Shown here: one piece after another, positions 13,352 through 55,440 of the stretch
Position numbering within the stretch: the first letter of the stretch is position 1
Layout: each line of letters opens with the position of its first letter
From: a virus
Taxonomy: Duplodnaviria; Caudoviricetes
Length of the DNA stretch: 64,000 bases
Direction: 5' to 3' (one strand)
Virus record (IMG/VR): IMGVR_UViG_3300027749_000034
Notes under the pieces: generated by a model
Seen by the model: the letters and a program-made list of their open reading frames with translations, nothing else
Databases searched by the model: none
What the model was told of the DNA's origin: nothing
Program-made: the position numbers and the translations under genes

Positions 13352-15178
13352 ATGGCAGACATTCCAGTTATACCCGGCGTTTCAGTTACCCCAATGGGGA
13401 TACTCAATAGACCAATCAAAGACATCATTTGTGCTATCCTTTTTGGTGGCATCAATAACATGCTCAAAGGAAATTTACTTTGTGTAAATTTAGACTTGGA
13501 AAAATTGTTAGATGAACCAATTGTTGCAGACATAAAAGCCGAGTTGACAGATCTAAAGAATGAACTCAAGGCCATGGAAGAAGCGTCTGGTATCAAAGAT
13601 GTGCTTGGCCGAGTCAATCAGGGCATCGCTGAAGTTCAAAATCTACTGGCACTGGATGGCTTATGTAAAATTCCACTGAAGTGTCCTCCGATACCCGACA
13701 TCCTGAACATGACCATTGACGCAGAGTTTGCCACTGCCAATGCAATTTTGGATGATATTGGTAGATTAGAAAAACCAAAATTATGTATCAATGGTGCTGG
13801 TGGTCTCAATACTGGTTCATACAATCCCAGTAGCATCTTGGGTAGAATACAAAGCAACATTACCAGACTGGGAACTATTCCTGGTCATGAATTAGACATA
13901 TTAAAAAGACAATTGACACGAGTGACTGCTGGACTAAAGGCCAGTCTCAATAGACAGTTGTTTCCAGATTTCAGACACAAGACAGATTTGACAACAGGCA
14001 GGCCATATGCTAAAGGTGGTGCTGGTGTAATACTGGCCAGTGCCGCTGAACAGACCAAACTGAAGGCCAAGATTGCCGCTGACTCAGCATCGCCTGCAGG
14101 CCTACTGGCATGGCAACAGGTAGCAAACATGCCTGGAGCATCTGCCGCGGATATTCAAGCATCATATCCGCCAGGTGACGCCAGTCTAAAAGATGCAGTC
14201 AACATAGCACAGACTCTGGTAGGTGGAATGAAAAAGACTGCCAGTTATCCTTCCACAGCCAATGGAATTATAAATGCAAACATGTGGCCCGGTGTGTTGG
14301 GTCCAGACATATATGCTATGGCAGTACAGGCAATGAGTCCACAGGACCCGCTATTTGTACAACAAGATCCACTGTATGATTATTGCGGTAAGTTCATTGG
14401 ATACAATGAAACAGTTATAACCGGCGACTCTGCATACAAAGGTGGCGACCCAAAGAAAGATGCTGTATTGAATCCACACAAAACAAACTTTGAATTCAAT
14501 TGGATCGCAGATAGACAATGTTGGGCAGTCACTGGCGTACAAAGCGAGCAAGTGGTAAATGGAAGAAAGGACACTTATCTAGATGCAAATCCAGAAATTG
14601 AATTGCATCGAGGGTATAGTCATATTCTAAGTGTGCCAAGTGCTGACATCAGTGGATTCGTTATGAGTGGCGACTATCCAACAGCAACTAGTACGGCTCC
14701 AGAATTTTTTATATGTCGAGTTGGAAACGATCTAAGGCCACTGATTGCCAATGGCGAAATTGTCAAGTTCAACATGGGACTAAGCAGACTTGAGACATCA
14801 GAAGTATTGGACAATGCCAATGGTTGGCTACCAAGTGAAACAGAACATGCGGGTATTGATGGTCCAGAAGGATACAATCGTAGATTAGAAAACCCAATGG
14901 GTACCACATTGTATTTTTCAGTCGAACAACGACAATACTCGGGTACTGTTCCTCCGCTGTACCCAAGCAAGGACATTTGGTGGTATAATCCAACCACTCT
15001 TATAACACAACAGTGGATACCAGATGGCGAGGCCAGTGGTCAATGGGTTGTAGTATCTGATCAGGATAGAAACAATCATTGGTATGGATCAAGTCCTTTG
15101 CAGAGCGATATAAGTGCAAACTATCTGGCCTACAGTAATCGAAATGGTTCAGTTTTTGGCCTATTAAAATTAATTTGA
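13352..15178 (+). CDS. hypothetical (putative virion/baseplate) protein
   Basis: 608-aa ORF next to PAAR/M15; TAAGTA at 13339. Confidence 0.7.
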   Translation: MADIPVIPGVSVTPMGILNRPIKDIICAILFGGINNMLKGNLLCVNLDLEKLLDEPIVADIKAELTDLKNELKAMEEASGIKDVLGRVNQGIAEVQNLLALDGLCKIPLKCPPIPDILNMTIDAEFATANAILDDIGRLEKPKLCINGAGGLNTGSYNPSSILGRIQSNITRLGTIPGHELDILKRQLTRVTAGLKASLNRQLFPDFRHKTDLTTGRPYAKGGAGVILASAAEQTKLKAKIAADSASPAGLLAWQQVANMPGASAADIQASYPPGDASLKDAVNIAQTLVGGMKKTASYPSTANGIINANMWPGVLGPDIYAMAVQAMSPQDPLFVQQDPLYDYCGKFIGYNETVITGDSAYKGGDPKKDAVLNPHKTNFEFNWIADRQCWAVTGVQSEQVVNGRKDTYLDANPEIELHRGYSHILSVPSADISGFVMSGDYPTATSTAPEFFICRVGNDLRPLIANGEIVKFNMGLSRLETSEVLDNANGWLPSETEHAGIDGPEGYNRRLENPMGTTLYFSVEQRQYSGTVPPLYPSKDIWWYNPTTLITQQWIPDGEASGQWVVVSDQDRNNHWYGSSPLQSDISANYLAYSNRNGSVFGLLKLI

Positions 15179-15203
15179 CAAGCCGATCAAATAAGTATAT
15201 ACT
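15175..15203 (+). promoter_or_regulatory. sigma70-type promoter of tmRNA
   Basis: TTGACA-17-TATACT. Confidence 0.85.
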
Positions 15204-15209
15204 GTAAGT

Positions 15210-15500
15210 TATTGCTGTATGAAGCAAAGAGAAAAGTGTTCTGGACGGGGGTGCGAATCCCCCCAGGTCCACCATAAGCACATAGTTGTCCTAGATGAAA
15301 GAAACCTCTTAGGGCTCTAGTGGGGATTGTGTGCTTTTGATGGGCCTGACCTAGATTCGACAGGGCAACAAGTAACAGAGTGGACAGCACGACAGCGATA
15401 GTCGTAAAAACTAAACAAAAGTAACCGCAAACGACTCACAGTTCGCATTAGCGGCCTAACAGCCACTTAGGGTAAGACATACCTCGTAACAGAAACTCAG
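15210..15500 (+). ncRNA. ssrA: tmRNA, circularly permuted two-piece form
   Basis: T-arm plus CAGGTCC-ACCA (ends 15274) precedes the 5' end GGGCCTG (15342) with G3.U; tag ORF ANDSQFALAA*; ends are approximate. Confidence 0.93.
15427..15459 (+). other. tmRNA proteolysis tag reading frame (ANDSQFALAA*)
   Basis: gca aac gac tca cag ttc gca tta gcg gcc taa. Confidence 0.9.
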
Positions 15501-15528
15501 AAAAGGTTGCTTCGGCAACCTTTTTCTT
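15501..15528 (+). terminator. intrinsic terminator
   Basis: AAAAGGTTGC-TTCG-GCAACCTTTTT. Confidence 0.9.
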
Positions 15529-16072: not shown

Positions 16073-16095
16073 ACTGTATGAAACAGGAGAATCAT

Positions 16096-26098: not shown

Positions 26099-26272
26099 TG
26101 TTGTAGAAATACAACAAAAATAAAGGCAGATAGTTGTTGACAGGAATGAGTAGATAGCATATACTAGTTGAATACTGTAGCAATACAGCAGAAACAGTTT
26201 GAAAAGTGTTGTAGAAATACAACAAAAGAAAGTTAGAAAACGGTTGACATTACGGCATTGTCCGTATATAAT
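26099..26272 (+). promoter_or_regulatory. tandem operator plus sigma70 promoters (rrn P1/P2-like)
   Basis: Operators 26099-116 and 26207-224; TTGACA-17-TATACT (26137-65) and TTGACA-17-TATAAT (26244-72). Confidence 0.85.
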
Positions 26273-26615: not shown

Positions 26616-26619
26616 TATT

Positions 26620-26705
26620 GCGAGTATGGTGAAATCTGGTAGACACAAGAGACTTAAAATCTCTCGCCGCAAGGTGTCCCGGTTCGACTCCGGGTACTCG
26701 CACCA
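26620..26705 (+). tRNA. tRNA-Leu(TAA)
   Basis: Type II cloverleaf, loop CT TAA AA, CCA. Confidence 0.96.
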
Positions 26706-27122: not shown

Positions 27123-27347
27123 ATGACATACATCAGTCGAGGAGTTGACATTGATACAGATCAATGTGTACAAAATGTTGGAGGCAATCGATTCAACTTG
27201 GTTTTAATTGCCGCGGCAAGAGCCAGGGAAATTAGTCAAAACAATAGAGAAAGTGTTCGCACAGAACATCTCCATACACCAGTAACTGCATTACTTGAAG
27301 TCCAAGATGGTAAGTTGGGGTATGAAGGAATACGAAAAGTTCGTTAA
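27123..27347 (+). CDS. rpoZ: RNA polymerase omega subunit homologue
   Basis: VGGNRFNLVLIAAARAREI ... PVTALLEVQDGK matches omega signature NRFDLVLVAARRARQ...VIALREIEEG. Confidence 0.85.
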   Translation: MTYISRGVDIDTDQCVQNVGGNRFNLVLIAAARAREISQNNRESVRTEHLHTPVTALLEVQDGKLGYEGIRKVR

Positions 27348-27429: not shown

Positions 27430-27430
27430 G

Positions 27431-27624
27431 ACGTTCCGAGTGTCTTCGGATAGTGTGACCCACACGATGAGAAGTAGTGTGACAACTACGGGTGGTAGTC
27501 TTTGAACCGAAAGGCCGCTGGCAATGCGATAACGGAACCTGTCGGGAAGTGGGTGGAAGCCGTGTGTGATGGTGTTGGGGGTTCCTGGCGCTTGATACGG
27601 TACAATTACCACCGGGGTTCGCAG
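27431..27624 (+). ncRNA. unknown pseudoknotted structured RNA
   Basis: GTTCCG/CGGAAC (27433/27533) crosses GGTGGTA/TACCACC (27491/27607); GNRA hairpins. Confidence 0.5.
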
Positions 27625-27696
27625 AGCATATTAAAACACACTCTAACCGCAAGGTGACAAGTGAGCTCATGTTCATGAAGTGTGTTTCAATATGTT
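27625..27696 (+). ncRNA. long-stem hairpin cassette
   Basis: 18-bp stem AGCATATTAAAACACACT/AGTGTGTTTCAATATGTT with one A/C mismatch. Confidence 0.55.
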
Positions 27697-27700
27697 TTTC

Positions 27701-27968: not shown

Positions 27969-28409
27969 ATGTTGCACTTGATTCAAACACTGGGGGAAAA
28001 TATACTGGACTTGATCAGTCAAGACCCAGTACGCCCACATATTCCTGCAAATGATAGGATTGGCAACAACAAAGAAATTTTTGTACTCAAAAATGAAGAC
28101 GACTCAGTTCGTGCAATCACCTGCGTAAGTTATCAAAACAGTATTCCCAAGTCTGAACTGGATTTGTTTATTTCAGATGTAGAACCAGACACAGCAGTTT
28201 TTTATACAATTTGGAGTTACAAGCCCGGAGCAGGCCGTCAGTTGATTTTTGATGCAGTTGACTACATCAAAAAAAATAAACCAAGTATAACAAAGTTTGT
28301 TACACTAAGTCCTAAAACAGAAATGGCCAAGCGTTTTCATACCAAGAACGGTGCTATTATTTTTAGAGAAAACGAAGAGTCAACAAACTACGAATATTTG
28401 CATCCTTAA
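27969..28409 (+). CDS. hypothetical protein (possible GNAT-like fold)
   Basis: QDPVRPHIP, FYTIWSYKPGAGRQLI, TLSP..EMAKRFH; stop codon lies inside tRNA-Val. Confidence 0.7.
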   Translation: MLHLIQTLGENILDLISQDPVRPHIPANDRIGNNKEIFVLKNEDDSVRAITCVSYQNSIPKSELDLFISDVEPDTAVFYTIWSYKPGAGRQLIFDAVDYIKKNKPSITKFVTLSPKTEMAKRFHTKNGAIIFRENEESTNYEYLHP

Positions 28410-28475
28410 CTCAGTTGGTAGAGTTCCTCGCTTACACCGAGGCTGTCGGCGGTTCGAGCCCGTCAGGATGTACCA
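28400..28475 (+). tRNA. tRNA-Val(TAC)
   Basis: Cloverleaf, loop CT TAC AC, CCA. Confidence 0.95.
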
Positions 28476-28497
28476 AACAACATAAGTAAATTTCAAC

Positions 28498-28573
28498 GCC
28501 CTTGTAGCTCAGCTGGTAGAGCACCGCACTTGTAATGCGGGGGTCCCGTGTTCGATTCATGGCGGGGGCACCA
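28498..28573 (+). tRNA. tRNA-Thr(TGT)
   Basis: Cloverleaf, loop CT TGT AA, CCA. Confidence 0.95.
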
Positions 28574-28586
28574 TTTTTAATCACCC

Positions 28587-28835
28587 ATGTGGGAATACCT
28601 AGTAACCTTTTTTGCGATCTTTTTACTTGACATTGTTTACACCTACTACTTGCGGTGTGTGGCCAATGACAATGTGTTAGGTGCAAGTTTTTGGTCAATA
28701 GCCTGTTATATTCTAGGAAGTGTGGCAGTTATAAATTACACAACCAATCATTGGTTAATGATTCCAGCCGTGGCAGGTGCGTTTTGCGGCACCTGGGTTG
28801 GAATGAAAATTAAGAAGAAACAATTCGGAGTGTAG
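28587..28835 (+). CDS. small multi-pass membrane protein
   Basis: Three hydrophobic helices; stop codon lies inside tRNA-Pro. Confidence 0.7.
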   Translation: MWEYLVTFFAIFLLDIVYTYYLRCVANDNVLGASFWSIACYILGSVAVINYTTNHWLMIPAVAGAFCGTWVGMKIKKKQFGV

Positions 28836-28902
28836 CGCAGTCTGGTAGCGCACCTGGTTTGGGACCAGGGGGTCCAAGGTTCGAATCCTTGTACTCCGAC
28901 CA
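28826..28902 (+). tRNA. tRNA-Pro(TGG)
   Basis: CGGAGTG acceptor, loop TT TGG GA, CCA. Confidence 0.96.
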
Positions 28903-29103
28903 AGTACCCCGGGCACCTCTGCCCGTTATACAAGAGGGGGATATTAGCAAACCCATAGACGCTACGGTGCATTGGATCTACCGCAAGGCCCATTTACGGC
29001 GACTTGAGAAATCACAAAGGCAGGAACTGTACTGTCTAAATAGAAAAATAGTTGGACGGGGTAACCACCCAGTCTGGGGCTCTTGTGGTGAGAGTAGCCA
29101 GAC
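28903..29103 (+). ncRNA. unknown structured RNA
   Basis: Nested hairpins GTCTGG/CCAGAC, GTCTAA/TTGGAC, GGGT/ACCC, CC-GCAA-GG. Confidence 0.45.
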
Positions 29104-29233
29104 ACTTTATAAAAGCCGTTTGAGTAGCTACAATGGAACACCGAAATACTTCTCAATACTAGTCAGTAGAAGGACCGGCCATGAAGAGTAGGGCTACCGC
29201 GAATTCAAGCGTCACAGACGGCCTCTATAAAGT
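29104..29233 (+). ncRNA. long-stem-enclosed structured RNA
   Basis: 18-bp closing stem 29104-21/29216-33 with A/C mismatches, abutting tRNA-Gly. Confidence 0.5.
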
Positions 29234-29307
29234 GCGGGATTAGTTTAATGGTAAAACTACAGATTTCCAATCTGTTGTCGTCAGTTCGATTCTGACATTC
29301 CGCTCCA
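29234..29307 (+). tRNA. tRNA-Gly(TCC)
   Basis: Cloverleaf, loop TT TCC AA, U73-CCA. Confidence 0.95.
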
Positions 29308-29329
29308 GACTTTTAGCATAAATATTGGT

Positions 29330-30202
29330 ATGAACCCAGACTTTACTAATCTAGCCTATGCCAAAGTCAATTTGAACTTTGATGCTGAATTATTTGCCAC
29401 CGAATACGATCGGCACATATTGCCACATGGAATTTCCATTTGCAATAGTCTTGAAACTTTAAACACATCTGTTGCACTCAATGAGTATTGGGGCATGGTT
29501 CCTCCAGATGAATATACCAAAGCAGATGTGTGGCGACAACCAGGACCTGCTACTACATTAGAATATATAAAACAACAACGCCCACAGTGGAAAATGGTGC
29601 AGTTAATGGGATTAGATATCACAGAAATAACTGACCCATTACTGTTGCGATTTTCCAAGCAAGGGGGACCTAGTGTTCGAAACGAAACACTGGATCCAAA
29701 GTATAAATTTTCAATCAAACCTTATTTTGCTGATTTGCAAATATACAAATGGATCATTGAAAATATTCCGTTACAGGAAATTAGAAGTTTACATTGTGTT
29801 AGCATTGAAGCAGGCGGGCTGGCAACAATACATCGAGATGTAAAAGGTCTATATGCTGGTATCAACAACAGCAGTGGATCGGACAATCGCATCTATAAAA
29901 ATGGTTATGTAATTATCAATTTAAATATCAGTAGCGGAGGTGGTCCACTATGGTGGTGCCTGGACGGGCCAGGTGTATTAGATCCGCAAAAATCAGATGA
30001 TCAAGTTTATTTGACAAACGATTATTTTTTACATGCAGTTCCATTAATGACTAGTCGACGCCGCCAAATTAGAATCATGGGCAAGCCAAAACCAGAGTTA
30101 TGGAACATGTTTGAATCAACGGGCATGATTACACTTCCAGACGACTACCAGTACAACGGCGGATTTGGCATTGAGTTCTTACCAAAAAATGACAGCAAAT
30201 AA
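29330..30202 (+). CDS. 2OG-Fe(II) dioxygenase-like protein (paralogue A)
   Basis: IHRD ... LHAV ... RRQIRI; TAAATA at 29319. Confidence 0.6.
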   Translation: MNPDFTNLAYAKVNLNFDAELFATEYDRHILPHGISICNSLETLNTSVALNEYWGMVPPDEYTKADVWRQPGPATTLEYIKQQRPQWKMVQLMGLDITEITDPLLLRFSKQGGPSVRNETLDPKYKFSIKPYFADLQIYKWIIENIPLQEIRSLHCVSIEAGGLATIHRDVKGLYAGINNSSGSDNRIYKNGYVIINLNISSGGGPLWWCLDGPGVLDPQKSDDQVYLTNDYFLHAVPLMTSRRRQIRIMGKPKPELWNMFESTGMITLPDDYQYNGGFGIEFLPKNDSK

Positions 30203-31073
30203 ATTTTCAAACATTGCCTATGCAAAGGTAAACCTGGCGTATGATCGTGAACTTTTTATCAAAGAATATGATGAGATTATATTACCACACGGTCACCCAA
30301 TTTCAAACAATTTGAATGCGGTTGGTTCTACTGCACCATTGAATAAGGTATGGGGAATGATACCACCAGAATTATACAATAAAGGTGATATCTACATGCA
30401 AGAAGGAAATGCCAACGCAATGAAATACATTGTGCGAGAACATCCAGGTTGGTTAATGGTGCAATTAATGCAAGCTGATCTGACTCAGGTTCCTGAGTCT
30501 AAGAAAGAAATTCTTAAGAAATTTTCTTTTAGAGGTGGACCCAGTTTTAGAAATGAAACATTGGATCTTGATTTTTCAATTAAACAACCTTTTGAACACA
30601 TGCAAATATGGAAATGGATACAAAATAATTTACCATTTAAAAAAATTAACAGCATTCATTGTGTGAGTTTAGAGCCTGGCGGGTTTTCAATCATACATAG
30701 AGATATGAAAGGCTTGTATAATCCATTGTCTAGTGCAACAACCAACAGACTTTACAAAGAAGGGTTCGTAGTACTTGCGTTGAATTTGTCAGATGGTGGA
30801 TCTCCTTTATATTGGTCGCTGGACGGCGCAGATGCAGTCAATTGTTTTAAAGCCAATGATCCACTGTATCTTTCAAGTGATTACTTCATGCACGGAGTAG
30901 GAATAGTAACCAGTCGCCGACGACAAGTCCGTGTTGCTGGTATTCCAGGTCCTGAATTATGGGATCTATTAGACAAAGATTCTATCATTGACCTGGGTGA
31001 ACATTACAAATATGATTCTTCCTGGGCCAGAGATTATGCAGAAAAAGAATTACTAAATCGAGAATCTAAATGA
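30189..31073 (+). CDS. 2OG-Fe(II) dioxygenase-like protein (paralogue B, tandem duplicate)
   Basis: Aligns end to end with A (AYAKVNL, GGPSxRNETLD, IHRD, H, SRRRQ). Confidence 0.6.
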   Translation: MTANKFSNIAYAKVNLAYDRELFIKEYDEIILPHGHPISNNLNAVGSTAPLNKVWGMIPPELYNKGDIYMQEGNANAMKYIVREHPGWLMVQLMQADLTQVPESKKEILKKFSFRGGPSFRNETLDLDFSIKQPFEHMQIWKWIQNNLPFKKINSIHCVSLEPGGFSIIHRDMKGLYNPLSSATTNRLYKEGFVVLALNLSDGGSPLYWSLDGADAVNCFKANDPLYLSSDYFMHGVGIVTSRRRQVRVAGIPGPELWDLLDKDSIIDLGEHYKYDSSWARDYAEKELLNRESK

Positions 31074-32584
31074 ATGTTGTACTATTAAATTCTGGTCCAA
31101 GAATTAATGAATTTACAGTTTACAGAACACTGGGTCCTTACAAGCTGGCACATGCACTGAGAAAAATTGGCATTTCTACAGTGGTAATTGATCACGTCAG
31201 ATGGTTAGATGATAACACTTTAACACAACTGCTGGATAAGTTTGTAACAGATGATACACTTTGCATTGGTATCAGCACCACATTTATATACCAACAGTTT
31301 GATACACCAGTTTTTCCGCCGGGCCTGCAAACTGCAATTGAAAAACTTGCTCAAAAATTTCCCAGGGCAAAAATTGTGTTGGGAGGACCTTACACGCAAA
31401 GATTTAAAGTAGAAGTACACCCTTCGTTTACTAAAGAGATTGATGCAATATTTGAAGAGTACTCTGAAGATACATTTGTAGATTACATACGCTCAATAAA
31501 AGAATCTAATATCACACTAATGCCACCATTTACTCATGAATTATGGAATGGCAAAGGAGTATTGTGTTTTAAAAAGCCCAAGATAGAACGATTTAACATT
31601 GAAACAAGTGCATTCAGATTTGTCGACGATGATGTAATTATGCCCAATGAGACATTGCCATTGGAAGTCAGCCGCGGTTGTATTTTTAAATGCAAATTCT
31701 GCAATCATTTGTTGTTGGGCAGAGGCAAGCTGGATTATCTAAGAGATTTTGAATTACTAAAAGATGAGCTAATGCACAATTATGAAAAGTGGGGAATAAC
31801 AAACTATTATATCATTTGCGATACATTCAATGACACTGAATATAAAATGAAAGCCTGGTATGATATGGTAGCAAGCTTACCTTTTAAAATCAAGTATACT
31901 TCATATTTGCGAGCAGACTTGTTGGATAAATTTCCAGATGTACCTTACATGCTACAAGAATCTGGGTTGCTGGCTGGTTTTCATGGAATAGAAAGCCTGG
32001 GCGAACAGGCTTCAGGCATCATTGGCAAAGGTTGGAGTGGCAAAAGTGCAAGAGAATATATACCAAAATTGTACCATGATATCTGGAATAAAAAAGTAGC
32101 GCAGACGCTCAGTTTCATTGTTGGATTAACCGGCGACACAAGAGAATCTTTGCTGGACACAGCACACTGGTTTGTTGACAACGATCTTTATAACATAACC
32201 TGGTCGTCATTGGGTCTTAGTAATCTAGGGGCTGTGCCCGGTCGACACGCCAGCGAATTTGAAAAAAATGCAACCAAATATGGATATGAATTTGTTGAAT
32301 TTATAGCTGATAATCGAAGAAAGACCAAGGGGTATTATTGGAAGACTGATTATTGGACTCTGCGAGATGCTGACAAATATGTGCAAGAAGTATTACGACC
32401 GGTGACCAACAAATCAAATGCGCCACATGGCAGTTGGACACTTTTGCAGTTTATGCAATATCCTGGTGTGACCGAAGAAAATTTGACCAAAGAAAATTCT
32501 AAAAAAATTGTAGCTGACCTTGATCTACGCCTGCAACAAAAATTATGGATCAATGCGTATGTAGGAAAAATGCTTGCTCTTTAA
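31070..32584 (+). CDS. cobalamin-binding radical SAM protein
   Basis: N-terminal B12-binding-like domain (LGPYKLA...IGISTTF...VLGG), SRGCIFKCKFC. Confidence 0.85.
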   Translation: MNVVLLNSGPRINEFTVYRTLGPYKLAHALRKIGISTVVIDHVRWLDDNTLTQLLDKFVTDDTLCIGISTTFIYQQFDTPVFPPGLQTAIEKLAQKFPRAKIVLGGPYTQRFKVEVHPSFTKEIDAIFEEYSEDTFVDYIRSIKESNITLMPPFTHELWNGKGVLCFKKPKIERFNIETSAFRFVDDDVIMPNETLPLEVSRGCIFKCKFCNHLLLGRGKLDYLRDFELLKDELMHNYEKWGITNYYIICDTFNDTEYKMKAWYDMVASLPFKIKYTSYLRADLLDKFPDVPYMLQESGLLAGFHGIESLGEQASGIIGKGWSGKSAREYIPKLYHDIWNKKVAQTLSFIVGLTGDTRESLLDTAHWFVDNDLYNITWSSLGLSNLGAVPGRHASEFEKNATKYGYEFVEFIADNRRKTKGYYWKTDYWTLRDADKYVQEVLRPVTNKSNAPHGSWTLLQFMQYPGVTEENLTKENSKKIVADLDLRLQQKLWINAYVGKMLAL

Positions 32585-32608
32585 GCGCAAATCACATATA
32601 ATATACAC

Positions 32609-33127
32609 ATGCCTTGGATTGAAAACATACCTTTAGAAAATGTAGCCACCGGACGTCATCATGATTGCGGTGACAACAGTATGCTGATCCAAATTTCGGA
32701 TCATGACATGGCGTTTCCTACTCCCAAACATCACTTCAAAGAAGTACACAAATTTACATTTTTGGACATTGAAGAAGATGGCATGACCAACACAGGTGAT
32801 GGTAGAACCATTGACATGAGCGAGTTTGCCATTACAGATGCACAGGCCGCAGAGCTTGTGCGCTTGTTGCAACATGCCTTTGAAAATCGCATGAATGTTG
32901 TGGTTCACTGTCATGCCGGTGTTTGCCGTTCAGGTGCTGTGGCAGAAGTTGGTGTTATGATGGGCTTTGCAGATTGCGAGCGTTTTCGTATTCCAAACCT
33001 GTTGGTCAAGCATAAAATGATGCGGGTGCTTGGATGGACCTACGATGAGCAGGAAAAGTCCTACGATGTAAACGGTACTGTTAACGAATGGGGCTTTATA
33101 CTGCCCAATCATGACGGAGATATTTAA
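32609..33127 (+). CDS. protein-tyrosine-phosphatase-like (Cys phosphatase)
   Basis: VHCHAGVCRSG CX5R loop. Confidence 0.85.
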   Translation: MPWIENIPLENVATGRHHDCGDNSMLIQISDHDMAFPTPKHHFKEVHKFTFLDIEEDGMTNTGDGRTIDMSEFAITDAQAAELVRLLQHAFENRMNVVVHCHAGVCRSGAVAEVGVMMGFADCERFRIPNLLVKHKMMRVLGWTYDEQEKSYDVNGTVNEWGFILPNHDGDI

Positions 33128-33306
33128 TGGATTGGTTACGCTATAGCGGCCTATGGATAACTGTAATTTTCAACCCATTCCATTGGCGCATTTCTTACTG
33201 CATTGATTCAACCCAGGCCGAATGGCCAAGCCCCAGTCGCCGAGAAATTGTAATACAGGTCATCATGCTGTCATTCAGGCTAGTTGTCGACAATGGTGAC
33301 TGGTAA
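33127..33306 (+). CDS. small hypothetical protein (not in ORF track)
   Basis: MDWLRYSGLWITVIFNPFHW..., TAATG overlap. Confidence 0.55.
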   Translation: MDWLRYSGLWITVIFNPFHWRISYCIDSTQAEWPSPSRREIVIQVIMLSFRLVVDNGDW

Positions 33307-33314
33307 GTATCGTT

Positions 33315-34277
33315 ATGAAATACGGCCTAGACGAAAACGACAAATATTGGATTGAATATACCAGCCTGCCCAGACCCATTGGAAACATGCGGCAAGAATT
33401 GGATTTGGCCTGTCAGCGCATTGCCAACGAAAGGAAAACAATAATCAGTCTAAGCAGTGGTTTAGACAGCCAAGTTGTACTGCATAGCTTTATACAACAA
33501 GGCTTGCCACATGAATGTGCGTTTATGTATCATCCTGGCTTTAATGATTCTGAATTTCAAAATATTAAAATCTTAGAGAAAAAATACAACTTTAAATGCA
33601 ATATCATTGACATTGATCCAATGGCTATAAAAGATGAAATAGAAGCGTTGTCGACTGCAACAAGGATACCACCACAACATCATATCAAAGCAAAATTTCT
33701 AGACCAACTTGATCAAGCTTGTCATGTGCTAGAAGGTCCAGAAAACCCAGACCTATTTGTAAACAACAACAATTTAAAATTGTCAGCCGCCGATGAGGGT
33801 ACTTGGCGCATGATGGAAAGTTACAATGCCATTGACACAACATCAGCTTGGTTCCATGCAAATCGACAAAACCCCACTGTGTATTTAGATAGACGAAGTT
33901 TGCATCAGGAATTTGCCATCAGCATGCTGATTGACGACATTGCAGTGGCCTATAGGCATGCATTTCCATATATTAAAGAAAACGGCATGGTAGATCCAAA
34001 AACTGGAAAAGCACCATTGTGGATCATCTGGGGCTGGGGCCTGTATATCAAGCCTATTCAATTTGGCAAGTATTGGGGCAATGAGCTAGAATATTTTCCA
34101 AAATTTGCTGTGCAAAAAGAAATAGATTATGTAGCAACTCCCAAAGTAATACACGACTATCTGGCACGAGTAATTTTCATCGACCTAGACCGGCACTTGG
34201 AGTTGATGTGCGATTATGGATCAAATCGCACAATAAAGCATACGCAAACATATATACAAAATGCAAAAAACATTTAA
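33315..34277 (+). CDS. PP-loop (adenine nucleotide alpha-hydrolase) protein
   Basis: ISLSSGLDS motif. Confidence 0.65.
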   Translation: MKYGLDENDKYWIEYTSLPRPIGNMRQELDLACQRIANERKTIISLSSGLDSQVVLHSFIQQGLPHECAFMYHPGFNDSEFQNIKILEKKYNFKCNIIDIDPMAIKDEIEALSTATRIPPQHHIKAKFLDQLDQACHVLEGPENPDLFVNNNNLKLSAADEGTWRMMESYNAIDTTSAWFHANRQNPTVYLDRRSLHQEFAISMLIDDIAVAYRHAFPYIKENGMVDPKTGKAPLWIIWGWGLYIKPIQFGKYWGNELEYFPKFAVQKEIDYVATPKVIHDYLARVIFIDLDRHLELMCDYGSNRTIKHTQTYIQNAKNI

Positions 34278-35469
34278 TAAAAATCTAGGTTATTATGTAT
34301 GTAATGATATTGATTTTCATTCTAAAATTGAAGCATGTATATATGGAACAAAAGTCAACCAGCCAGTACGCTGGATGTTCAACAACGCAGTTTTTAACTC
34401 ACACAATTGGGCAGTGGAACCTAGTGAAACATTAGATCAGTTGTATGATTCCCGTGCAAGACAGCTTCGTGAAAAGTATGACTATGTTATATTAAGCTAC
34501 TCGGGCGGCGCAGACAGCAACAACATCTACGAAAGCTTTCGTAGACAAGGCCTGCACATTGATGAAATTGTAGTTAATACAATGACAAAGGCCAGCGAAA
34601 AGTTTATTACAGTAGATGCAAACAGTAAAAATTCTTACAATGGTCCAGAAAGCGAACATCAATTGCATTTGTTGCCGCGCTTACGCACAATCGAAAATGA
34701 AATGCCTCGAACCAAGATTCGTATCTTTGATCTAAGTGACACATTATTTGAAAGCCTGGCCAACACAGATGAAAGTTGGGTATTGAATCAAAAGGAAGGT
34801 CTTAATCCAATTGGTATTACACGATTTAACTATCTGAGTTTTGATGAAGTCAAGCGTGATTTTGACCGCGGCAAGAGTACTTGTTTAATTACAGGAGTTG
34901 AAAAGCCCAGAGTTATAATTCGAGAAAACAATTTATTAATGCGGTTCAACGATCGTAGTGCCAATATCAACACAGTGGCAGAGCATATCAAAGAATATGA
35001 AAACTGCACAGTGGAATATTTTTATTGGGCTCCAGAAAGTGTGCGTATGTTGATCAAGCAAGGACATGTTATCAAGAAATATCTAGAGGCGTTCCCTGCT
35101 CAACAAGAATTTTGGCTAGAACACAGAGTTACTCCAGCGTTGACACGCCTGATGCACGAGCGTGTGTTAAGAAATCTGCTGTACACAACCTGGCAAGAAG
35201 AGTGGTTTCAGGCAGACAAAGCAGTGAGTGATTGGTACAGTGAGTTTGATCGTTGGTTCATTGATCATTACAAAGACACGTCAGCTTGGCGAAATTGGCA
35301 TGCTGGTATTGACTATGTTAAGAACAATTTAAAACCATTTTTAAAATCAAATGGACGCGGAATTCCAGACGGTTTAAAGCCAGTGGCACACATTTATAAT
35401 CTTGGACCAATCAAATTAGCAACCAACACATGGCTAATTGGAGAAAGCGGACAAAACAGACCACCATGA
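34261..35469 (+). CDS. PP-loop (adenine nucleotide alpha-hydrolase) protein
   Basis: LSYSGGADS motif, GVEKP. Confidence 0.72.
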   Translation: MQKTFNKNLGYYVCNDIDFHSKIEACIYGTKVNQPVRWMFNNAVFNSHNWAVEPSETLDQLYDSRARQLREKYDYVILSYSGGADSNNIYESFRRQGLHIDEIVVNTMTKASEKFITVDANSKNSYNGPESEHQLHLLPRLRTIENEMPRTKIRIFDLSDTLFESLANTDESWVLNQKEGLNPIGITRFNYLSFDEVKRDFDRGKSTCLITGVEKPRVIIRENNLLMRFNDRSANINTVAEHIKEYENCTVEYFYWAPESVRMLIKQGHVIKKYLEAFPAQQEFWLEHRVTPALTRLMHERVLRNLLYTTWQEEWFQADKAVSDWYSEFDRWFIDHYKDTSAWRNWHAGIDYVKNNLKPFLKSNGRGIPDGLKPVAHIYNLGPIKLATNTWLIGESGQNRPP

Positions 35470-36107
35470 CATATAAAAACTACCATATTCCAATGCCCAA
35501 GTTCAATCCAACAGAGGCCGAACAGAAATGGGCATTGGAGAATATTGCACCCGAGTTGGAGCCAGCATTGAAATTGATCAAAGGTGCATTTGACAGAGTT
35601 GACGTGCCGCAAGAGTTATTTAGACCATGGCCTCAGCGTGATGCAGTACTGGCGCACTTTGATGAATTAAAATTGGAATTTAAAAGATTTGCCGGTTTTA
35701 TTTCACATCCTGGTCAATGCCCCAAGAGTGCTCATATAGATGCACTTGAACGCGGTGTAGCAATGGTAGCCCGTTTTAATATTCCCATACAAGGATTAAG
35801 TCCAGTCACACTGGATTGGTGGAATGACGGAATTGACAGCGATCGAATTGGCGAGCGTGTGTTCACTGAACTTAGAAATGGCGTAGAAAAACCAGCCTAC
35901 AGCTTTAAATCTCTAATAGATGACTGGGGTACCACCCCAGCGTTTACGGTGCTAGATCCAGGAGCATGTTGGAACAGGACTGAAATTGCACACAGAGCAC
36001 AAAGCCCCAACTGTGCTGTCAGCAGGATTCAAATCACAGCAGAAGTTAAACAACAAATTGCCTGGACTGAATTGGTTGCCAGACTAGAACGCCTGGGCTA
36101 CTGTTGA
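35466..36107 (+). CDS. 2OG-Fe(II) dioxygenase-like protein
   Basis: AHID..RFNIPI ... AHRA ... RIQIT. Confidence 0.58.
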   Translation: MTYKNYHIPMPKFNPTEAEQKWALENIAPELEPALKLIKGAFDRVDVPQELFRPWPQRDAVLAHFDELKLEFKRFAGFISHPGQCPKSAHIDALERGVAMVARFNIPIQGLSPVTLDWWNDGIDSDRIGERVFTELRNGVEKPAYSFKSLIDDWGTTPAFTVLDPGACWNRTEIAHRAQSPNCAVSRIQITAEVKQQIAWTELVARLERLGYC

Positions 36108-36170
36108 CCCATTGACAATCTGTGGCGATTGCTGTATAATAGCAGTAATCGCTTTTCTTTTGGAGAAATT

Positions 36171-36581
36171 ATGTTAGAATGTTTGATCTTAGGTGACAGT
36201 ATTGCAGTAGGCACACAGCAATTCCGACAGGAATGTGCGCTGATAGGCAAAGGTGGAATCAACACAGCACAATGGAATCGTATGTATCGGAGTCGAGATC
36301 TAACTGCCCGCAATGTTATTATTAGCTTGGGTACAAACGATCACGCCGGTGTCAATACCTTTCGGGAATTGATGGACATGCGTATGCGTGTGGATGCTGA
36401 TCATGTGTTTTGGATCTTGCCGCCTTGCAATGACAAATTCTGCAAACCCGCAGTGAATGAAGTAGTTGAACTTATTGCTCGAAACTTTAATGACACTGTT
36501 ATTGGCACTAAAAAACTACAAACAGATGCCATACACCCCAGCTGGTCAGGGTACCAAGAACTGGGCCAAAAGACAAAATAA
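36171..36581 (+). CDS. SGNH/GDSL hydrolase
   Basis: GDSIA, SLGTND, DAIHP blocks. Confidence 0.85.
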   Translation: MLECLILGDSIAVGTQQFRQECALIGKGGINTAQWNRMYRSRDLTARNVIISLGTNDHAGVNTFRELMDMRMRVDADHVFWILPPCNDKFCKPAVNEVVELIARNFNDTVIGTKKLQTDAIHPSWSGYQELGQKTK

Positions 36582-36646
36582 CTGCGGTCCAAAATAAATA
36601 GTCCATACAACTTAGAGTTGAATTTAAGTTAACATGGGTTATTTCA

Positions 36647-37696
36647 ATGACAATCAGATCGTCAGGCGCACTGCCTGCCAGTGAAATCAATGCCGAACTC
36701 GGGCTCGCTTCAACCGCACAAATTGGCATTGGTGGAGCAGTACCTAGAGGCCTAGCTGGCGTTGCGTCAGGTGCTATTGCATTCAGCAACTTTTATGGCA
36801 AGGCCAATCTGACACCGGGCAATGGCGGTCTATTCACAACATCAACCACATTTACAGTACCCAGCTCATCTGGCGGAACACTCAAAATATTAAGCATTGG
36901 TGGTGGTGGTGGCGGTGGCGGTGGAACAAATCGTTGTGCTGTTTATCTGTATGTGGGTGGCGGAGGAGGTGGCTCCGGAGAAATCACATTAAAAACAGTG
37001 ACCGTGACACCTGGTACAGTTTTGACAATCACAGTTGGTGCCGCAGGTTCAGCTGGCGGACAGCGTGATGGACAATATGGCGGCGGTGCCGCAGGTGGCA
37101 CAGGCGGTACTACCACTGTCAAAAACGGTGCCACTATTTTGACCGGTGCAGGTGGCGGAGGAGGTGGCGCACTTTCTCAACAGCCGTCGTCGTCACCTAT
37201 TCTTGACAACTATAGTGCTCACTTTAACCAAAGCGTTATCAATACAGCGGCCAGCACAATTTTAGCGGCCGGAGGCGCAGGTGGTTCAGGTGGCGGAGGT
37301 GGTTCAGGCTACACAAATCCGTTTGCCAGCGTGGCCGGCAATGGCACTTCTTATGCAGGTACCACCTACATGGGCGGCGGCGATGGCGGCCGTGGCTACA
37401 CCATCGATACCACCAGTGGCGTGGCTACACCATACGGCACAGGTTCTGCAGGTCGTGGCGGACGAGGAAATGTTGGCCCACAAATCCAGCTGGACAAGGG
37501 TTACTATTATTTCACGCCACAAAATAGCTGTAAAGGCGGTTCGCCTGCCGCAGGAAACTACATTGCTCAAGCAGGAAGCACCTATGGAGGTGGTGGTGGT
37601 GGTGGTGGTATGGACAACGAATATTGCGGTACCACTGGTAAAGCCACTGGTGTTGCTGGATCGGGCGGCGCTGTATTCATCTGGTGGGGTTATTGA
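36647..37696 (+). CDS. glycine-rich tail-fibre/adhesin-like protein
   Basis: SSG..xS.INAELG...FSNFYGK N-terminal module, polyglycine tracts, C-terminal G.GAVFIWW. Confidence 0.7.
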   Translation: MTIRSSGALPASEINAELGLASTAQIGIGGAVPRGLAGVASGAIAFSNFYGKANLTPGNGGLFTTSTTFTVPSSSGGTLKILSIGGGGGGGGGTNRCAVYLYVGGGGGGSGEITLKTVTVTPGTVLTITVGAAGSAGGQRDGQYGGGAAGGTGGTTTVKNGATILTGAGGGGGGALSQQPSSSPILDNYSAHFNQSVINTAASTILAAGGAGGSGGGGGSGYTNPFASVAGNGTSYAGTTYMGGGDGGRGYTIDTTSGVATPYGTGSAGRGGRGNVGPQIQLDKGYYYFTPQNSCKGGSPAAGNYIAQAGSTYGGGGGGGGMDNEYCGTTGKATGVAGSGGAVFIWWGY

Positions 37697-37697
37697 C

Positions 37698-38090
37698 ATG
37701 AGCGCACCAGCTATCACAATTGGATGTGTGTCCAATCTCTACAGCAGACAAATGCACTTTGTCAATGCAGGCGATGTTGAACTGGGTCATACTCACTTGT
37801 ATGATCATTTCACATTGTTGGCCGCTGGTAGTCTTAGAGTCACTGTAGATGGTGCTGATAATGTGTTTACTGCACCACATATGATTTTCATTAAAAAAGA
37901 CAAAAATCATAGATTAGAAGCACTGGAGAACAACACAGTGGCCTACTGTATACATGCTCTTAGAAACAATGACGGATCAGGTGATATAATGGATCCCAAC
38001 ATGATACCCATGATACCACCTGATGGTGGTACCTATCAACCAGGCTCCGAAGGCCTAGTGACTCCGAGTTTACCCGATTGGATGAAATAA
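37698..38090 (+). CDS. cupin-fold protein
   Basis: GHTHLYDH...F.APHMIFI...H cupin metal motifs. Confidence 0.7.
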   Translation: MSAPAITIGCVSNLYSRQMHFVNAGDVELGHTHLYDHFTLLAAGSLRVTVDGADNVFTAPHMIFIKKDKNHRLEALENNTVAYCIHALRNNDGSGDIMDPNMIPMIPPDGGTYQPGSEGLVTPSLPDWMK

Positions 38091-38093
38091 CAA

Positions 38094-38153
38094 ATGGCAC
38101 TACAATCATCCGGAGCCATGAATGCCAGTGATATCAATGCCGAACTCACATAA
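38094..38153 (+). pseudogene. truncated copy of the Gly-rich adhesin N-terminus
   Basis: MALQSSGAMNASDINAELT* aligns with MTIRSSGALPASEINAELG. Confidence 0.65.
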
Positions 38154-38203
38154 TGTTGTAAAAATACAACACCGGTTGACAAACTGATTTTTTGTGCTAT
38201 AAT
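38154..38203 (+). promoter_or_regulatory. operator plus sigma70 promoter
   Basis: TGTTGTAAAAATACAACA then TTGACA-16-TATAAT. Confidence 0.8.
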
Positions 38204-38223
38204 AGTCTTTTAGAAGGATTTAT

Positions 38224-38445
38224 ATGACCAACAAACAACGAGCTGTATTTGAAACTGTCAAGATGGTTGTAATTTTTATTGTAATGGGTCTGACATTCAG
38301 TACCATCATACAAACTGGCTATGGCGTATACTTGGGTATTGCCATGGTTGCACTTGGCGTGGTGTATGCATTGATCATGATGTATGAAATGAAGCTGGGC
38401 CAAATTGAATCAAAACAAAGACTAGACGAACTATCAAAAAATTAA
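38224..38445 (+). CDS. small two-TM membrane protein
   Basis: Two hydrophobic helices, AAGGA RBS. Confidence 0.7.
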   Translation: MTNKQRAVFETVKMVVIFIVMGLTFSTIIQTGYGVYLGIAMVALGVVYALIMMYEMKLGQIESKQRLDELSKN

Positions 38446-38472
38446 TAATTTTAGCCTTAACGCAACAAGAGG

Positions 38473-38501
38473 TTGACAACAAGGCTAAGTAAGTGTACAA
38501 T
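38473..38501 (+). promoter_or_regulatory. sigma70 promoter of leader/attenuator 2
   Basis: TTGACA-17-TACAAT. Confidence 0.8.
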
Positions 38502-38508
38502 GATTACT

Positions 38509-38628
38509 ATGACGAACACATTCATATCAAGACTATCGCAGTGGTGCTCAAAACAGAGCATGAGCTTCTGTGACTCCTTTAGTATGAGCTATCATGTTCG
38601 CCATATTCTAGGAGCTCATCCAGGATAA
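38509..38628 (+). CDS. putative leaderless Ser-rich leader peptide (39 aa)
   Basis: MTNTFISRLSQWCSKQSMSFCDSFSMSYHVRHILGAHPG*; starts at predicted TSS. Confidence 0.55.
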   Translation: MTNTFISRLSQWCSKQSMSFCDSFSMSYHVRHILGAHPG

Positions 38629-38649
38629 AGTAATCAGACCGTTTACTTG

Positions 38650-38678
38650 AACCCTGGACTAACACTCCGGGGTTTTTT
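38650..38678 (+). terminator. attenuator-type intrinsic terminator 2
   Basis: AACCCTGGA-7nt-TCCGGGGTT-TTTT; stem identical to terminator 1. Confidence 0.85.
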
Positions 38679-38697
38679 CTTTTTGTGATAAGGAACA

Positions 38698-38853
38698 ATG
38701 ACATTAGATAAAAAGATCAAAGAAGCAGAGTGGACACGCACTCATACATTGAGCAAAGAGCAGTTACAAAAATTGCTCCGTGACAAGATGAAGAGAGCGC
38801 AACACATGCATCAGTTAAACAAGCGAGAGATGTTGACTCAGAGACATCGTTGA
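38698..38853 (+). CDS. small basic hypothetical protein (not in ORF track)
   Basis: TAAGGA RBS; MTLDKKIKEAEWTRTH... Confidence 0.6.
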   Translation: MTLDKKIKEAEWTRTHTLSKEQLQKLLRDKMKRAQHMHQLNKREMLTQRHR

Positions 38854-38864
38854 TCGCCAAGTGG

Positions 38865-38894
38865 TTGACAGGAAACGAGGTCCTGTGCTACACT
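38865..38894 (+). promoter_or_regulatory. sigma70 promoter
   Basis: TTGACA-18-(TG)TACACT. Confidence 0.6.
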
Positions 38895-38955
38895 ATAAAC
38901 AAGCACAAACGGGCGGTACTAGGGATGAAGCACCTTGTGTGGTGTGAAAAATCTA

Positions 38956-39051
38956 GTATATTAAAGCATATACTTGCCTGACTGCAAACGTCGTGGTAAA
39001 CTACTAGAGAAAGGGGTTCAAATCCCCGGGACTGGTATGTGCTTTAATATA
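38956..39051 (+). ncRNA. tRNA-like RNA in an 18-bp closing stem
   Basis: GTATATTAAAGCATATAC/GTATGTGCTTTAATATAC; inner T-arm GGGG-TTCAAAT-CCCC; TGGTAA D-loop-like segment. Confidence 0.6.
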
Positions 39052-39098
39052 CACATTGAGCTGGCCAGGACTGTAATGTCGCAGACAGTGTGTTTAAC

Positions 39099-39183
39099 GG
39101 AGAAGAAGCATCAATGGTGATGCAGTGGACTGTAAATCCGCCGCCTTCGGGCACGACTGGTTCGATCCCAGTATTCTCCACCA
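39099..39183 (+). tRNA. tRNA-Tyr(GTA)
   Basis: Type II cloverleaf, loop CT GTA AA. Confidence 0.95.
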
Positions 39184-39188
39184 ATTTA

Positions 39189-39280
39189 GGAAGTGTGGCC
39201 GAGTCCGGTTTATGGCACTAGTCTTGAAAACTAGCGGAGGGTTAAACCTCCCGTGAGTTCGAATCTCACCGCTTCCGCCA
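39189..39280 (+). tRNA. tRNA-Ser(TGA)
   Basis: Type II cloverleaf, loop CT TGA AA, G73. Confidence 0.96.
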
Positions 39281-39287
39281 TGTCAAT

Positions 39288-39362
39288 GGGCCAGTAGCTT
39301 AATGGTAAAGCAACCGACTCATAATCGGTCGAGTCTTGGTTCAATTCCAAGCTGGCCCACCA
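39288..39362 (+). tRNA. tRNA-Ile2(CAT) (lysidine type) or Met
   Basis: GGGCCAG acceptor resembling Ile2, loop CT CAT AA. Confidence 0.85.
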
Positions 39363-39368
39363 GTTTAT

Positions 39369-39443
39369 GCCCTGTTAGTTCAACGGATAGAATTAGAGTC
39401 TTCGAAACTCAGGATGGTGGTTCGATTCCATCACAGGGCGCCA
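39369..39443 (+). tRNA. tRNA-Arg(TCG)
   Basis: Cloverleaf, loop CT TCG AA. Confidence 0.9.
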
Positions 39444-39446
39444 AGT

Positions 39447-39646
39447 TTTGTTAGAGTGTCAGCAAGAGAAAGACTCGCTAGAAGGCTTCTTCGAAGGGCC
39501 GACTAATGTTAAAGAAGGACGGGTTCAAGTCCCGTAAACGCAGTGGAGCACCTTTGTCCTGTATCCCAAGTGACTTACCGAATCCCGCTCGAGCTTGTTA
39601 ATTCGGGTGAATGGTGCTTATAATGTGGTAGCACTACTTTAACAAA
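39447..39646 (+). ncRNA. long-stem-enclosed structured RNA with T-arm
   Basis: TTTGTTAGAGT/ACTTTAACAAA closing stem; ACGGG-TTCAAGT-CCCGT at 39519-35. Confidence 0.55.
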
Positions 39647-39654
39647 TTCAACAT

Positions 39655-39732
39655 GTACAGATGCCCGAGAGGCCCAAGGGAACTGATTGCAAACCAGTAA
39701 AGCCGTCGGTTCAAATCCGACTCTGTACTCCA
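39655..39732 (+). tRNA. tRNA-Cys(GCA)
   Basis: GTACAGA/TCTGTAC, loop TT GCA AA, U73. Confidence 0.92.
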
Positions 39733-39733
39733 A

Positions 39734-39808
39734 GGTAATGTAGCATAATGGTAGTGCGCCTGCTTCATACGCAGTCCAGTGCTAGTTCGACTCTAGCCAT
39801 TACCACCA
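39734..39808 (+). tRNA. tRNA-Met(CAT), elongator-like
   Basis: GGTAATG acceptor, loop TT CAT AC. Confidence 0.88.
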
Positions 39809-39828
39809 ATTTTATAGGAGAGCCTGTT

Positions 39829-39966
39829 ATGGCCAGTGTCAAGAAAGGAACGATGACTCGTTCACCACAGTGGTGGAAACACCTTAAAGAATGGAAGCGT
39901 GTGTTCTGGAAAGCAGAACGACAAGCTCACAAAAAAGCGGGTATAGCTCAGTTGGTAGAGCAGTAG
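39829..39966 (+). CDS. small Trp/Lys-rich protein
   Basis: AGGAG RBS; PQWWKHLKEWKRVFWK; last 10 codons overlap tRNA-Lys. Confidence 0.6.
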   Translation: MASVKKGTMTRSPQWWKHLKEWKRVFWKAERQAHKKAGIAQLVEQ

Positions 39967-40012
39967 ACTTTTAATCTATTGGTCGTGGGTTCGAATCCCT
40001 CTGCCCGCACCA
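39937..40012 (+). tRNA. tRNA-Lys(TTT)
   Basis: Cloverleaf, loop CT TTT AA, CCA. Confidence 0.96.
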
Positions 40013-54849: not shown

Positions 54850-55440
54850 ATGAGTTTAGTGCCAATCGTAGTAGAGAAGACCGGAGCAGGTGAGCGCAGT
54901 TACGACATTTACAGTCGTTTACTCAAAGAGCGAATTGTATTGCTTGAAGGCGAAGTACATGACCAAATGGCCAATCTGATTGTTGCCCAGTTGCTGTTCT
55001 TAGAAGCAGACAACCCAGAAAAAGAAATCAATCTTTTTATTAACAGCCCTGGTGGAAGCATTACAGCAGGCATGGCAATCTACGACACAATGCAATATAT
55101 CAAAAGCCCTGTAAGCACCATTGTCATGGGTCAAGCATGTAGCATGGGCAGTTTCTTAGCGCAGTCTGGTCAAGCAGGTCGACGGTTTGTATTGCCCAAT
55201 GCAAGACACATGATCCACCAACCTTCAGGTGGCACTCGTGGCATGGTAAGTGATATTGAAATCAGTTACAATGAAATTGTATTTTGGAAAAAACGACTAA
55301 CAGAGTTATATGTCAAGCATAACTCAGCTGGTAAAACATATCCACAGTTTGAAAAAGACATGGATCGAGATACATTCATGAGCGCCGAAGAAGCTGTTGC
55401 ATACGGCTTGGCCGACGGTATCATGACAAAACGCCCATGA
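54850..55440 (+). CDS. clpP: ATP-dependent Clp protease proteolytic subunit
   Basis: [23 protein letters not shown] (Ser), MIHQP (His), DRD. Confidence 0.96.

Follow-up and report, generated by a model that had tools for sequence, protein, structure and literature searches.

Three small genes of an uncultured freshwater phage end inside the tRNA genes that follow them

Three protein-coding genes of the virus represented by IMG/VR record IMGVR_UViG_3300027749_000034, here called P0001, P0002 and P0003, run into the transfer RNA (tRNA) gene that follows them and find their stop codon there, P0001 in tRNA-Val, P0002 in tRNA-Pro and P0003 in tRNA-Lys. They lie in the 64,000 nucleotide stretch of DNA that was analysed (the window), and they raise the question of what, if anything, such overlaps do for the virus. 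A preliminary description of this DNA had suggested that they could be an off switch, in which RNase P strips the stop codon from the messenger RNA (mRNA) as it matures the tRNA, transfer-messenger RNA (tmRNA) tags the protein made from the stop-less message and ClpXP destroys it, and that they could be a reason for the virus to carry tmRNA and ClpP. The comparisons given here make it probable that the overlaps are a tolerated by-product of tight gene packing and tRNA-gene turnover, and not a purpose-built switch.

The positions of the three stop codons were confirmed exactly by ARAGORN, by Rfam and by reading of the sequence. P0001 (27969..28409, + strand) encodes a small GNAT-fold protein of 146 residues and ends ...TAT TTG CAT CCT TAA, where the G of TTG (28400) is the first base of tRNA-Val(UAC) (28400..28475, +; found by ARAGORN; Rfam RF00005, 59.2 bits). 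Positions 2–10 of the tRNA encode the last two residues of the protein (H-P) and its TAA, which occupies tRNA positions 8–10 (28407–28409). This tRNA has U8-A9-A10 with a compensating A10-U25 pair instead of G10-C25, and its embedded triplet is therefore TAA instead of TAG; its top pair, G1-U72, is also unusual. P0002 (28587..28835, +) encodes a hydrophobic protein of 82 residues, probably with two membrane spans, and ends ...CAA TTC GGA GTG TAG, where the C of TTC (28826) is the first base of tRNA-Pro(UGG) (28826..28902, +; ARAGORN; Rfam RF00005, 66.0 bits). Positions 1–10 of tRNA-Pro encode the end of the protein, (F)-G-V, and U8-A9-G10 donates the TAG (28833–28835). P0003 (39829..39966, +), which encodes a basic protein of 45 residues, is in a frame that misses U8-A9-G10 of tRNA-Lys(UUU) (39937..40012, +; ARAGORN; Rfam RF00005, 75.5 bits), and its TAG (39964–39966) falls at tRNA positions 28–30, in the 5' strand of the anticodon stem.

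Are these open reading frames (ORFs) genes, and are they read to the stops given above? All three are real conserved genes under purifying selection, with ratios of nonsynonymous to synonymous change (dN/dS) of about 0.03–0.19, and the tRNAs that they enter are sound as well. P0001 has 370 relatives in IMG/VR; its pairwise dN/dS is 0.046/0.428 against the homologue L004 (about 0.11). Its GNAT-type core is strongly conserved, and the protein weakly resembles the catalytic domain of malonyl-CoA decarboxylase. That core stops at N-Y-E-Y-[LIV], and the residues encoded by the tRNA lie within an already variable tail (alignment A1). P0002 has 47 relatives and pairwise dN/dS values of 0.07–0.19. Relatives of P0003 were found in IMG/VR by a back-translated sequence pattern; its conserved core, residues 1–36, is found again in six other IMG/VR contigs (pairwise dN/dS 0.03–0.16), and the native tail of the relatives (e.g. 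...KQQARKDI) is swapped in P0003 for nine tRNA-encoded residues, AGIAQLVEQ. The start codons agree with the homologue alignments, which show an invariant M1-L2 in P0001 (A1) and MASVKKG in P0003, and P0003 has a ribosome-binding site, AGGAG, 8 nucleotides upstream of its start. Searches of the three proteins against Pfam, PHROGs and NCBIfam gave no nuclease domain, and none of them resembles a nuclease or a mobility protein.

It might still be held that the overlaps are an artefact of annotation, with the ORFs not being genes, or with TAG being read as something other than a stop, and some relatives do have a suppressor-type tRNA with a CUA anticodon, while TAG is the rarest stop codon in the window (5 of 64 long ORFs). 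This is very improbable. The dN/dS values and the hundreds of homologues reject it for the ORFs, all three stops close dense, non-overlapping ORFs, one of them is TAA, and no suppressor is present among the 28 tRNAs of the window, so that recoding of TAG in the window was rejected. The CUA-anticodon tRNA (called 'Pyl' by ARAGORN) was seen in the related contigs L122, L123 and L127, about 690–1470 nucleotides downstream of the P0002 homologue, and in L128. There may thus be amber suppression or TAG recoding in part of the clade, and in such viruses a TAG at tRNA positions 8–10 would be an unreliable stop.

Nor are the three proteins simply tagged and destroyed, as the preliminary description had them: strong purifying selection on all three means that a functional, properly terminated fraction must be made. 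Since correctly finished protein matters, the borrowed stop is used, presumably on transcripts that have not yet been processed.

U8, A9 and G10 are among the most conserved nucleotides of tRNAs, and together they spell TAG. TAG or TAA is present at positions 8–10 in 18 of 27 window tRNAs, and a stop triplet, whether TAG, TAA or TGA, is present there in 339 (59%) of the 575 non-redundant tRNA contexts taken from the relatives that were fetched. A gene that abuts a tRNA and has no stop of its own therefore terminates, in one frame in three, after two extra residues, and the two window stops at positions 8–10 need no special explanation. Two of the three borrowed stops are TAG, the window's rarest stop, which fits stops set by the tRNA instead of by the gene's own preference. 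Enrichment of TAA among the donor tRNAs (4/31 versus 18/308) was also considered; three of the four TAA cases are a single tRNA-Val lineage, the difference is not significant, and no selection is claimed.

The 28 tRNAs, the tmRNA and the three overlapping ORFs are all on the + strand, with the tRNAs and ORFs in two blocks. Block 1 is headed by two sigma-70-like promoters, at 26137 and 26244 (26137..26272, +; 11/12 and 12/12 matches), and has no + strand terminator-like site between 26301 and 29500. At the head of block 2 is a sigma-70-like promoter at 38865..38894 (+; 10/12), with another near-consensus one at 38473, and downstream to 41200 the sole + strand terminator-like match, 39315–39331, was read as the anticodon arm of tRNA-Met. 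The overlap leaves no room for a terminator between ORF and tRNA, so the two would be co-transcribed, and any mRNA that contains the stop of an overlapping ORF is therefore an ORF-tRNA co-transcript. RNase P cuts at tRNA position 1, and its cleavage very probably leaves stop-less mRNA pieces here, with predicted ends of ...TAT TT (28399), ...CAA TT (28825) and ...AAA AAA (39936). Because these ends are, in frame, ...TT, ...TT and ...AAAAAA, a poly(A) tail cannot rebuild a stop codon on any of them.

If the loss of the stop were the purpose of the layout, relatives might be expected to keep it, and conservation of the overlap had been named in the preliminary description as a check. It is not conserved: orthologues of P0001, P0002 and P0003 also occur with a stop of their own ahead of the tRNA, or with no tRNA nearby, and the state flips between sisters. 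Homologues of P0001 are of three kinds. Some stop at position 8 of tRNA-Val, tRNA-Pro or tRNA-Ala, some stop 0–12 nucleotides before tRNA-Met, -Pro, -Val, -Gln, -Ser or -Ala, and some have no downstream tRNA; most P0001 homologues have no adjacent tRNA. On the P0001 protein tree the state in which the stop is inside the tRNA needs at least three changes across strongly supported branches, and six on the maximum-likelihood tree. Even sisters differ. The homologue in L009 has its own TAA one nucleotide before tRNA-Val; those in L017 and L018 differ from it by a small indel and terminate at position 8 of a tRNA-Val that is nearly identical (the L018 tRNA differs by one base in the compared stretch). 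L047 has no tRNA, whereas the gene of its sister L048 stops at position 8 of tRNA-Ala.

The P0002 family behaves similarly. Thirteen non-redundant homologues, with 77–91% identity, stop at position 8 of a tRNA-Pro, and several different sequences of that tRNA are involved. About 23 homologues have their own stop, some of them translationally coupled to the downstream gene, and about half have no adjacent tRNA. The P0002 tree has 74 columns, too few to count gains reliably. One locus, L084, bears a trace of the process. Its P0002 protein is identical to that of L083, where the gene overlaps its tRNA; in L084 the stop of the P0002 homologue is supplied by a 13 nucleotide fossil of a tRNA-Pro 5' end (cggagtgTAGcgc, including the TAG), and a new tRNA-Pro begins 24 nucleotides downstream. 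The L084 gene thus kept the stop and lost its coupling to a tRNA, the fossil recording the tRNA origin of that stop. The same fossil was noted in L082 as well as in L084 (positions about 3240–3290). P0003 has four relatives with their own tail and stop and no tRNA, and its closest relative enters a different tRNA-Lys and stops at position 19. We also note that P0002 homologues begin 4–13 nucleotides after the 3' end of the preceding tRNA, with no obvious Shine-Dalgarno sequence, so that processing of that tRNA would leave their mRNAs with almost no leader.

How general is the layout in this clade? Same-strand ORFs of at least 80 residues that stop inside a tRNA or at most 40 nucleotides upstream of one were collected, in a sample biased toward two query families. 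Of 118 such ORFs, 80 stop 0–40 nucleotides upstream (mostly 0–12) and 38 stop inside, 28 of the latter at position 8. Gene ends are thus spread continuously around tRNA starts. Stops inside tRNAs of many identities are found in at least 12 unrelated gene families; among the relatives a 345-residue protein ends at position 8 of tRNA-Gly(GCC), a 185-residue protein at position 13 of tRNA-Trp and a 247-residue protein at position 8 of tRNA-Met. An unbiased survey of the full tRNA regions of four complete relatives and the window gave 2, 0, 1, 0 and 3 credible stops inside tRNAs, respectively, that is, 6 of about 31 gene-to-tRNA junctions, or about one in five. In L014 a GIY-YIG-like gene of 166 residues lies against a tRNA, with its stop at position 6 of tRNA-Gly(UCC); this would fit homing endonucleases as drivers of tRNA-array shuffling, by analogy with T4 and T5.

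Bacterial tmRNA-SmpB rescues non-stop mRNAs, and ClpXP degrades the products. The window does encode a permuted tmRNA of betaproteobacterial type (15161..15527, +; ARAGORN; Rfam beta_tmRNA, 136.5 bits) and a ClpP protease subunit (54850..55440, +; Pfam E-value 2.6e-77), as the preliminary description stated. Stop-less 3' ends are the substrate of this rescue system, and the tag of the phage tmRNA, ANDSQFALAA, ends in an ALAA type of degron. With the beta_tmRNA model of Rfam, three of the four complete relatives score above the cut-off; in the fourth the contig end truncates the match. However, presence of tmRNA in the clade does not track the overlaps, because the complete genomes G002 and G004 have tmRNAs (84 and 87 bits) and no credible overlap, and because phage T5 has no tmRNA by either model and yet has four overlaps between coding sequences and tRNAs. 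The overlaps thus give no new reason for phages to carry tmRNA.

The course of events that best agrees with these comparisons would be as follows. About 28 tRNA genes lie in what would be two long same-strand operons with strong sigma-70-like promoters, and small genes are wedged between them with spacers of 0–12 nucleotides. In such arrays the tRNA genes would be shuffled, replaced and re-joined, and small indels would hit the last codons of the genes in between. Ribosomes on a gene that had lost its own stop would read into the tRNA, and in one frame in three would meet U8-A9-G10 after two residues; the tRNA would be a fail-safe terminator and the change nearly neutral, the cost being limited to two residues because about 59% of the clade's tRNAs have a stop triplet at positions 8–10. 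Functional protein would be made from the unprocessed ORF-tRNA co-transcript, as the purifying selection suggests. After the RNase P cut the upstream piece, with no stop and no protective 3' structure, would probably be degraded, and any ribosomes left on it would be rescued by tmRNA or by other rescue factors. Lowered expression would be a side effect, as has been proposed for T4 segB, and would be shared with genes that stop 0–12 nucleotides before a tRNA.

The idea of a selected off switch has several observations in its favour. The phage encodes both ClpP and a tmRNA with an ssrA-like tag, cleavage at position 1 would have to remove the stop, which polyadenylation could not rebuild at such ends, the window has more overlaps than any of the four complete relatives, and the P0002/tRNA-Pro overlap is long-lived. 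It is nevertheless improbable, since orthologues freely terminate ahead of the tRNA or lack a tRNA, with the state flipping between close sisters, since G002, G004 and T5 separate tmRNA from overlap in both directions, since proteins under such strong purifying selection must matter in their functional, untagged form, and since L084 kept the stop and lost the overlap, so that it was termination that was retained and not coupling. Another reading makes gene and tRNA an interlocked cassette, above all P0002 with tRNA-Pro, which would move and persist as a unit. The overlap would bind a dispensable gene to a tRNA that is of use, because deletions at the gene's end damage the tRNA, so that the gene gains by hitch-hiking or by protection from deletion, much as homing-endonuclease genes parked against tRNAs do. 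The P0002/tRNA-Pro pair does recur behind Met, Asn, Val, Gly and Thr tRNAs with spacers of 4–13 nucleotides, genes of GIY-YIG-like and other mobile types lie against tRNAs in relatives, and T4 SegB and the T5 endonucleases are encoded in tRNA clusters. We consider a cassette unlikely, however, as the three window proteins bear no resemblance to nucleases or mobility proteins, the partner of P0001 may be a Val, Pro, Ala, Met, Gln or Ser tRNA, about half of the P0002 and most of the P0001 homologues have no adjacent tRNA, and in L084 gene and tRNA are uncoupled.

Some points do weigh against overlaps that are no more than a tolerated by-product of packing and turnover. The P0002/tRNA-Pro overlap persists at 77–91% protein identity, beside different upstream tRNAs, and could be kept by selection and not by inertia alone. 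The window has the most overlaps (three) of the five genomes surveyed. Position 8 is used in about half of the apparently independent events, versus one third expected, which suggests that overlap depth is under some selection and that the layout is not fully neutral; the preference is mild, and it points to selection that acts on the shortness of the overlap and not on non-stop products. Four lake metatranscriptome libraries contain contigs from parts of the region, and two of these contigs bridge the P0001/tRNA-Val junction, but such library contigs cannot separate RNA from DNA carry-over, nor do they show the ends of molecules.

Phage T4 provides the closest published parallel in mechanism. 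It has been proposed that processing of the primary transcript during maturation of T4 tRNA-Arg severs the stop codon of segB from the last sense codon, and that SegB is restrained in this way through mRNA decay or a faulty product, as was also proposed for the endonucleases of the T5 tRNA cluster (Brok-Volchanskaya et al. 2008, Nucleic Acids Res 36:2094; PMC2330249). A processing-limited ORF inside a phage tRNA cluster is the mechanism of the preliminary description minus its tmRNA step, so that stop-stripping with restrained expression is not a new idea. SegB differs from the window genes in that its stop is 5 nucleotides upstream of tRNA-Arg in the T4 record and not inside it, and in being a homing endonuclease that needs low expression; the published proposal draws no link to tmRNA or ClpP. 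General searches of the literature on overlap of coding sequences with tRNAs, tmRNA and phage found nothing specific.

In layout the nearest known case is T5 (NC_005859), in which same-strand ORFs are interleaved with tRNAs and four coding sequences, T5.057, hegD (T5.061), hegC (T5.064) and T5.069, stop inside the next tRNA. The window ORFs share with the T5 and T4 type the same-strand embedding in a tRNA cluster and a stop at or inside the 5' part of the next tRNA. The T5 stops are at positions 4–6 of Met, 21–23 of Gln2, 12–14 of Ser2 and 22–24 of Asn, and, unlike in the window, none is at 8–10. Of these T5 genes, two encode HNH homing endonucleases, whereas the window genes encode GNAT-fold, small membrane and small basic proteins, and homing-endonuclease identity was found for none of the three. 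The acetyltransferase-like T5.056 has no similarity to P0001. T5.066, a two-span membrane protein encoded just upstream of T5 tRNA-Pro, was considered as a P0002 homologue, and its BLASTP match (E-value 0.17) was read as coincidence.

Mitochondrial genomes offer a further comparison. Mitochondrial stop codons are often incomplete or overlap the next tRNA, and polyadenylation completes a terminal U or UA to UAA; this tRNA punctuation was reportedly described by Ojala et al. in 1981. The window differs in that an in-frame U or UA for completion by poly(A) is absent at all three predicted cleaved ends. In mitochondria tRNAs delimit the mRNAs within long polycistronic transcripts, from which these are released by RNase P and RNase Z (PMC4394434). 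It is possible, though unlikely, that RNase P cleavage is in the same way the normal maker of the 3' ends of interleaved mRNAs in phage tRNA operons. For about one in five of the interleaved genes a considerable part of translation would then end stop-less, and the phage's own tmRNA and ClpP would be there to keep ribosomes free under this load. If so, this would be a bacterial-virus form of tRNA punctuation, with trans-translation in place of polyadenylation.

The layout, from the T5 annotation, and the idea that processing limits expression, from the T4 segB paper (PMC2330249), are thus already known. What is added here is that the layout is present in ordinary, non-endonuclease genes of a jumbo-phage clade, that it recurs at U8-A9-G10, that it toggles over short evolutionary distances and that it is not tied to phage tmRNA. 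The near-universal U8-A9-G10 of tRNAs is a ready-made stop codon for genes packed against them, and annotation pipelines that forbid overlap between coding sequences and tRNAs will truncate or drop real genes. Such overlaps are also a clean natural system for studying how the termination of translation might compete with RNase P processing on the same transcript.

The window has a G+C content of about 42%, and its surroundings include ribonucleotide reductase, radical-SAM enzymes, ClpP and many genes of unknown function. ARAGORN finds 27 tRNA genes and Rfam alone a 28th, a probable tRNA-Tyr with a long variable arm (39099–39180, +; 35.3 bits) that ARAGORN missed; this last is 89.5% identical to a tRNA-Tyr annotated in Limnohabitans phage DC31. 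Searched by nucleotide sequence, the INPHARED phage set gave matches of tRNA length only, and no close relative among deposited phage genomes. In IMG/VR there are hundreds of freshwater contigs related to the window, some of them complete genomes of 350–367 kb with 28–33 tRNAs each, and on this ground the window is assigned to an uncultured jumbo phage of lakes. Judging from its sequence type, the tmRNA points to a betaproteobacterial host.

Directly after the tmRNA is a row of + strand genes (16078–17756) encoding an HD-domain hydrolase (16078–16599), an AAA_33 kinase-like protein (16672–17220) and a metallophosphoesterase (17220–17756), which looks like an RNA end-healing or alarmone-hydrolysis set. 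The 60-codon ORF 26450–26632 has its stop at position 11 of tRNA-Leu(UAA); the loci compared contain no homologue of it, and it was not counted as a gene. A search for relatives of the 114-residue gene that neighbours P0003 found none. A homologue of RpoZ, the RNA polymerase omega subunit, is encoded inside the tRNA operon (27123–27347, +; TIGR00690, 31.4 bits versus a cut-off of 23.6) and stops 6 nucleotides before tRNA-Met, and the omega-like gene of the relative L086 stops at position 19 of tRNA-Met. Two gaps between tRNAs, 27430–27700 and 28903–29233 (+), are poor in ORFs and are represented by many sequence variants in the metatranscriptome contigs, with summed depths of hundreds to thousands (maximum about 3,500 at 27504; X17); a widespread family of abundant, stable non-coding RNAs is probably encoded there.

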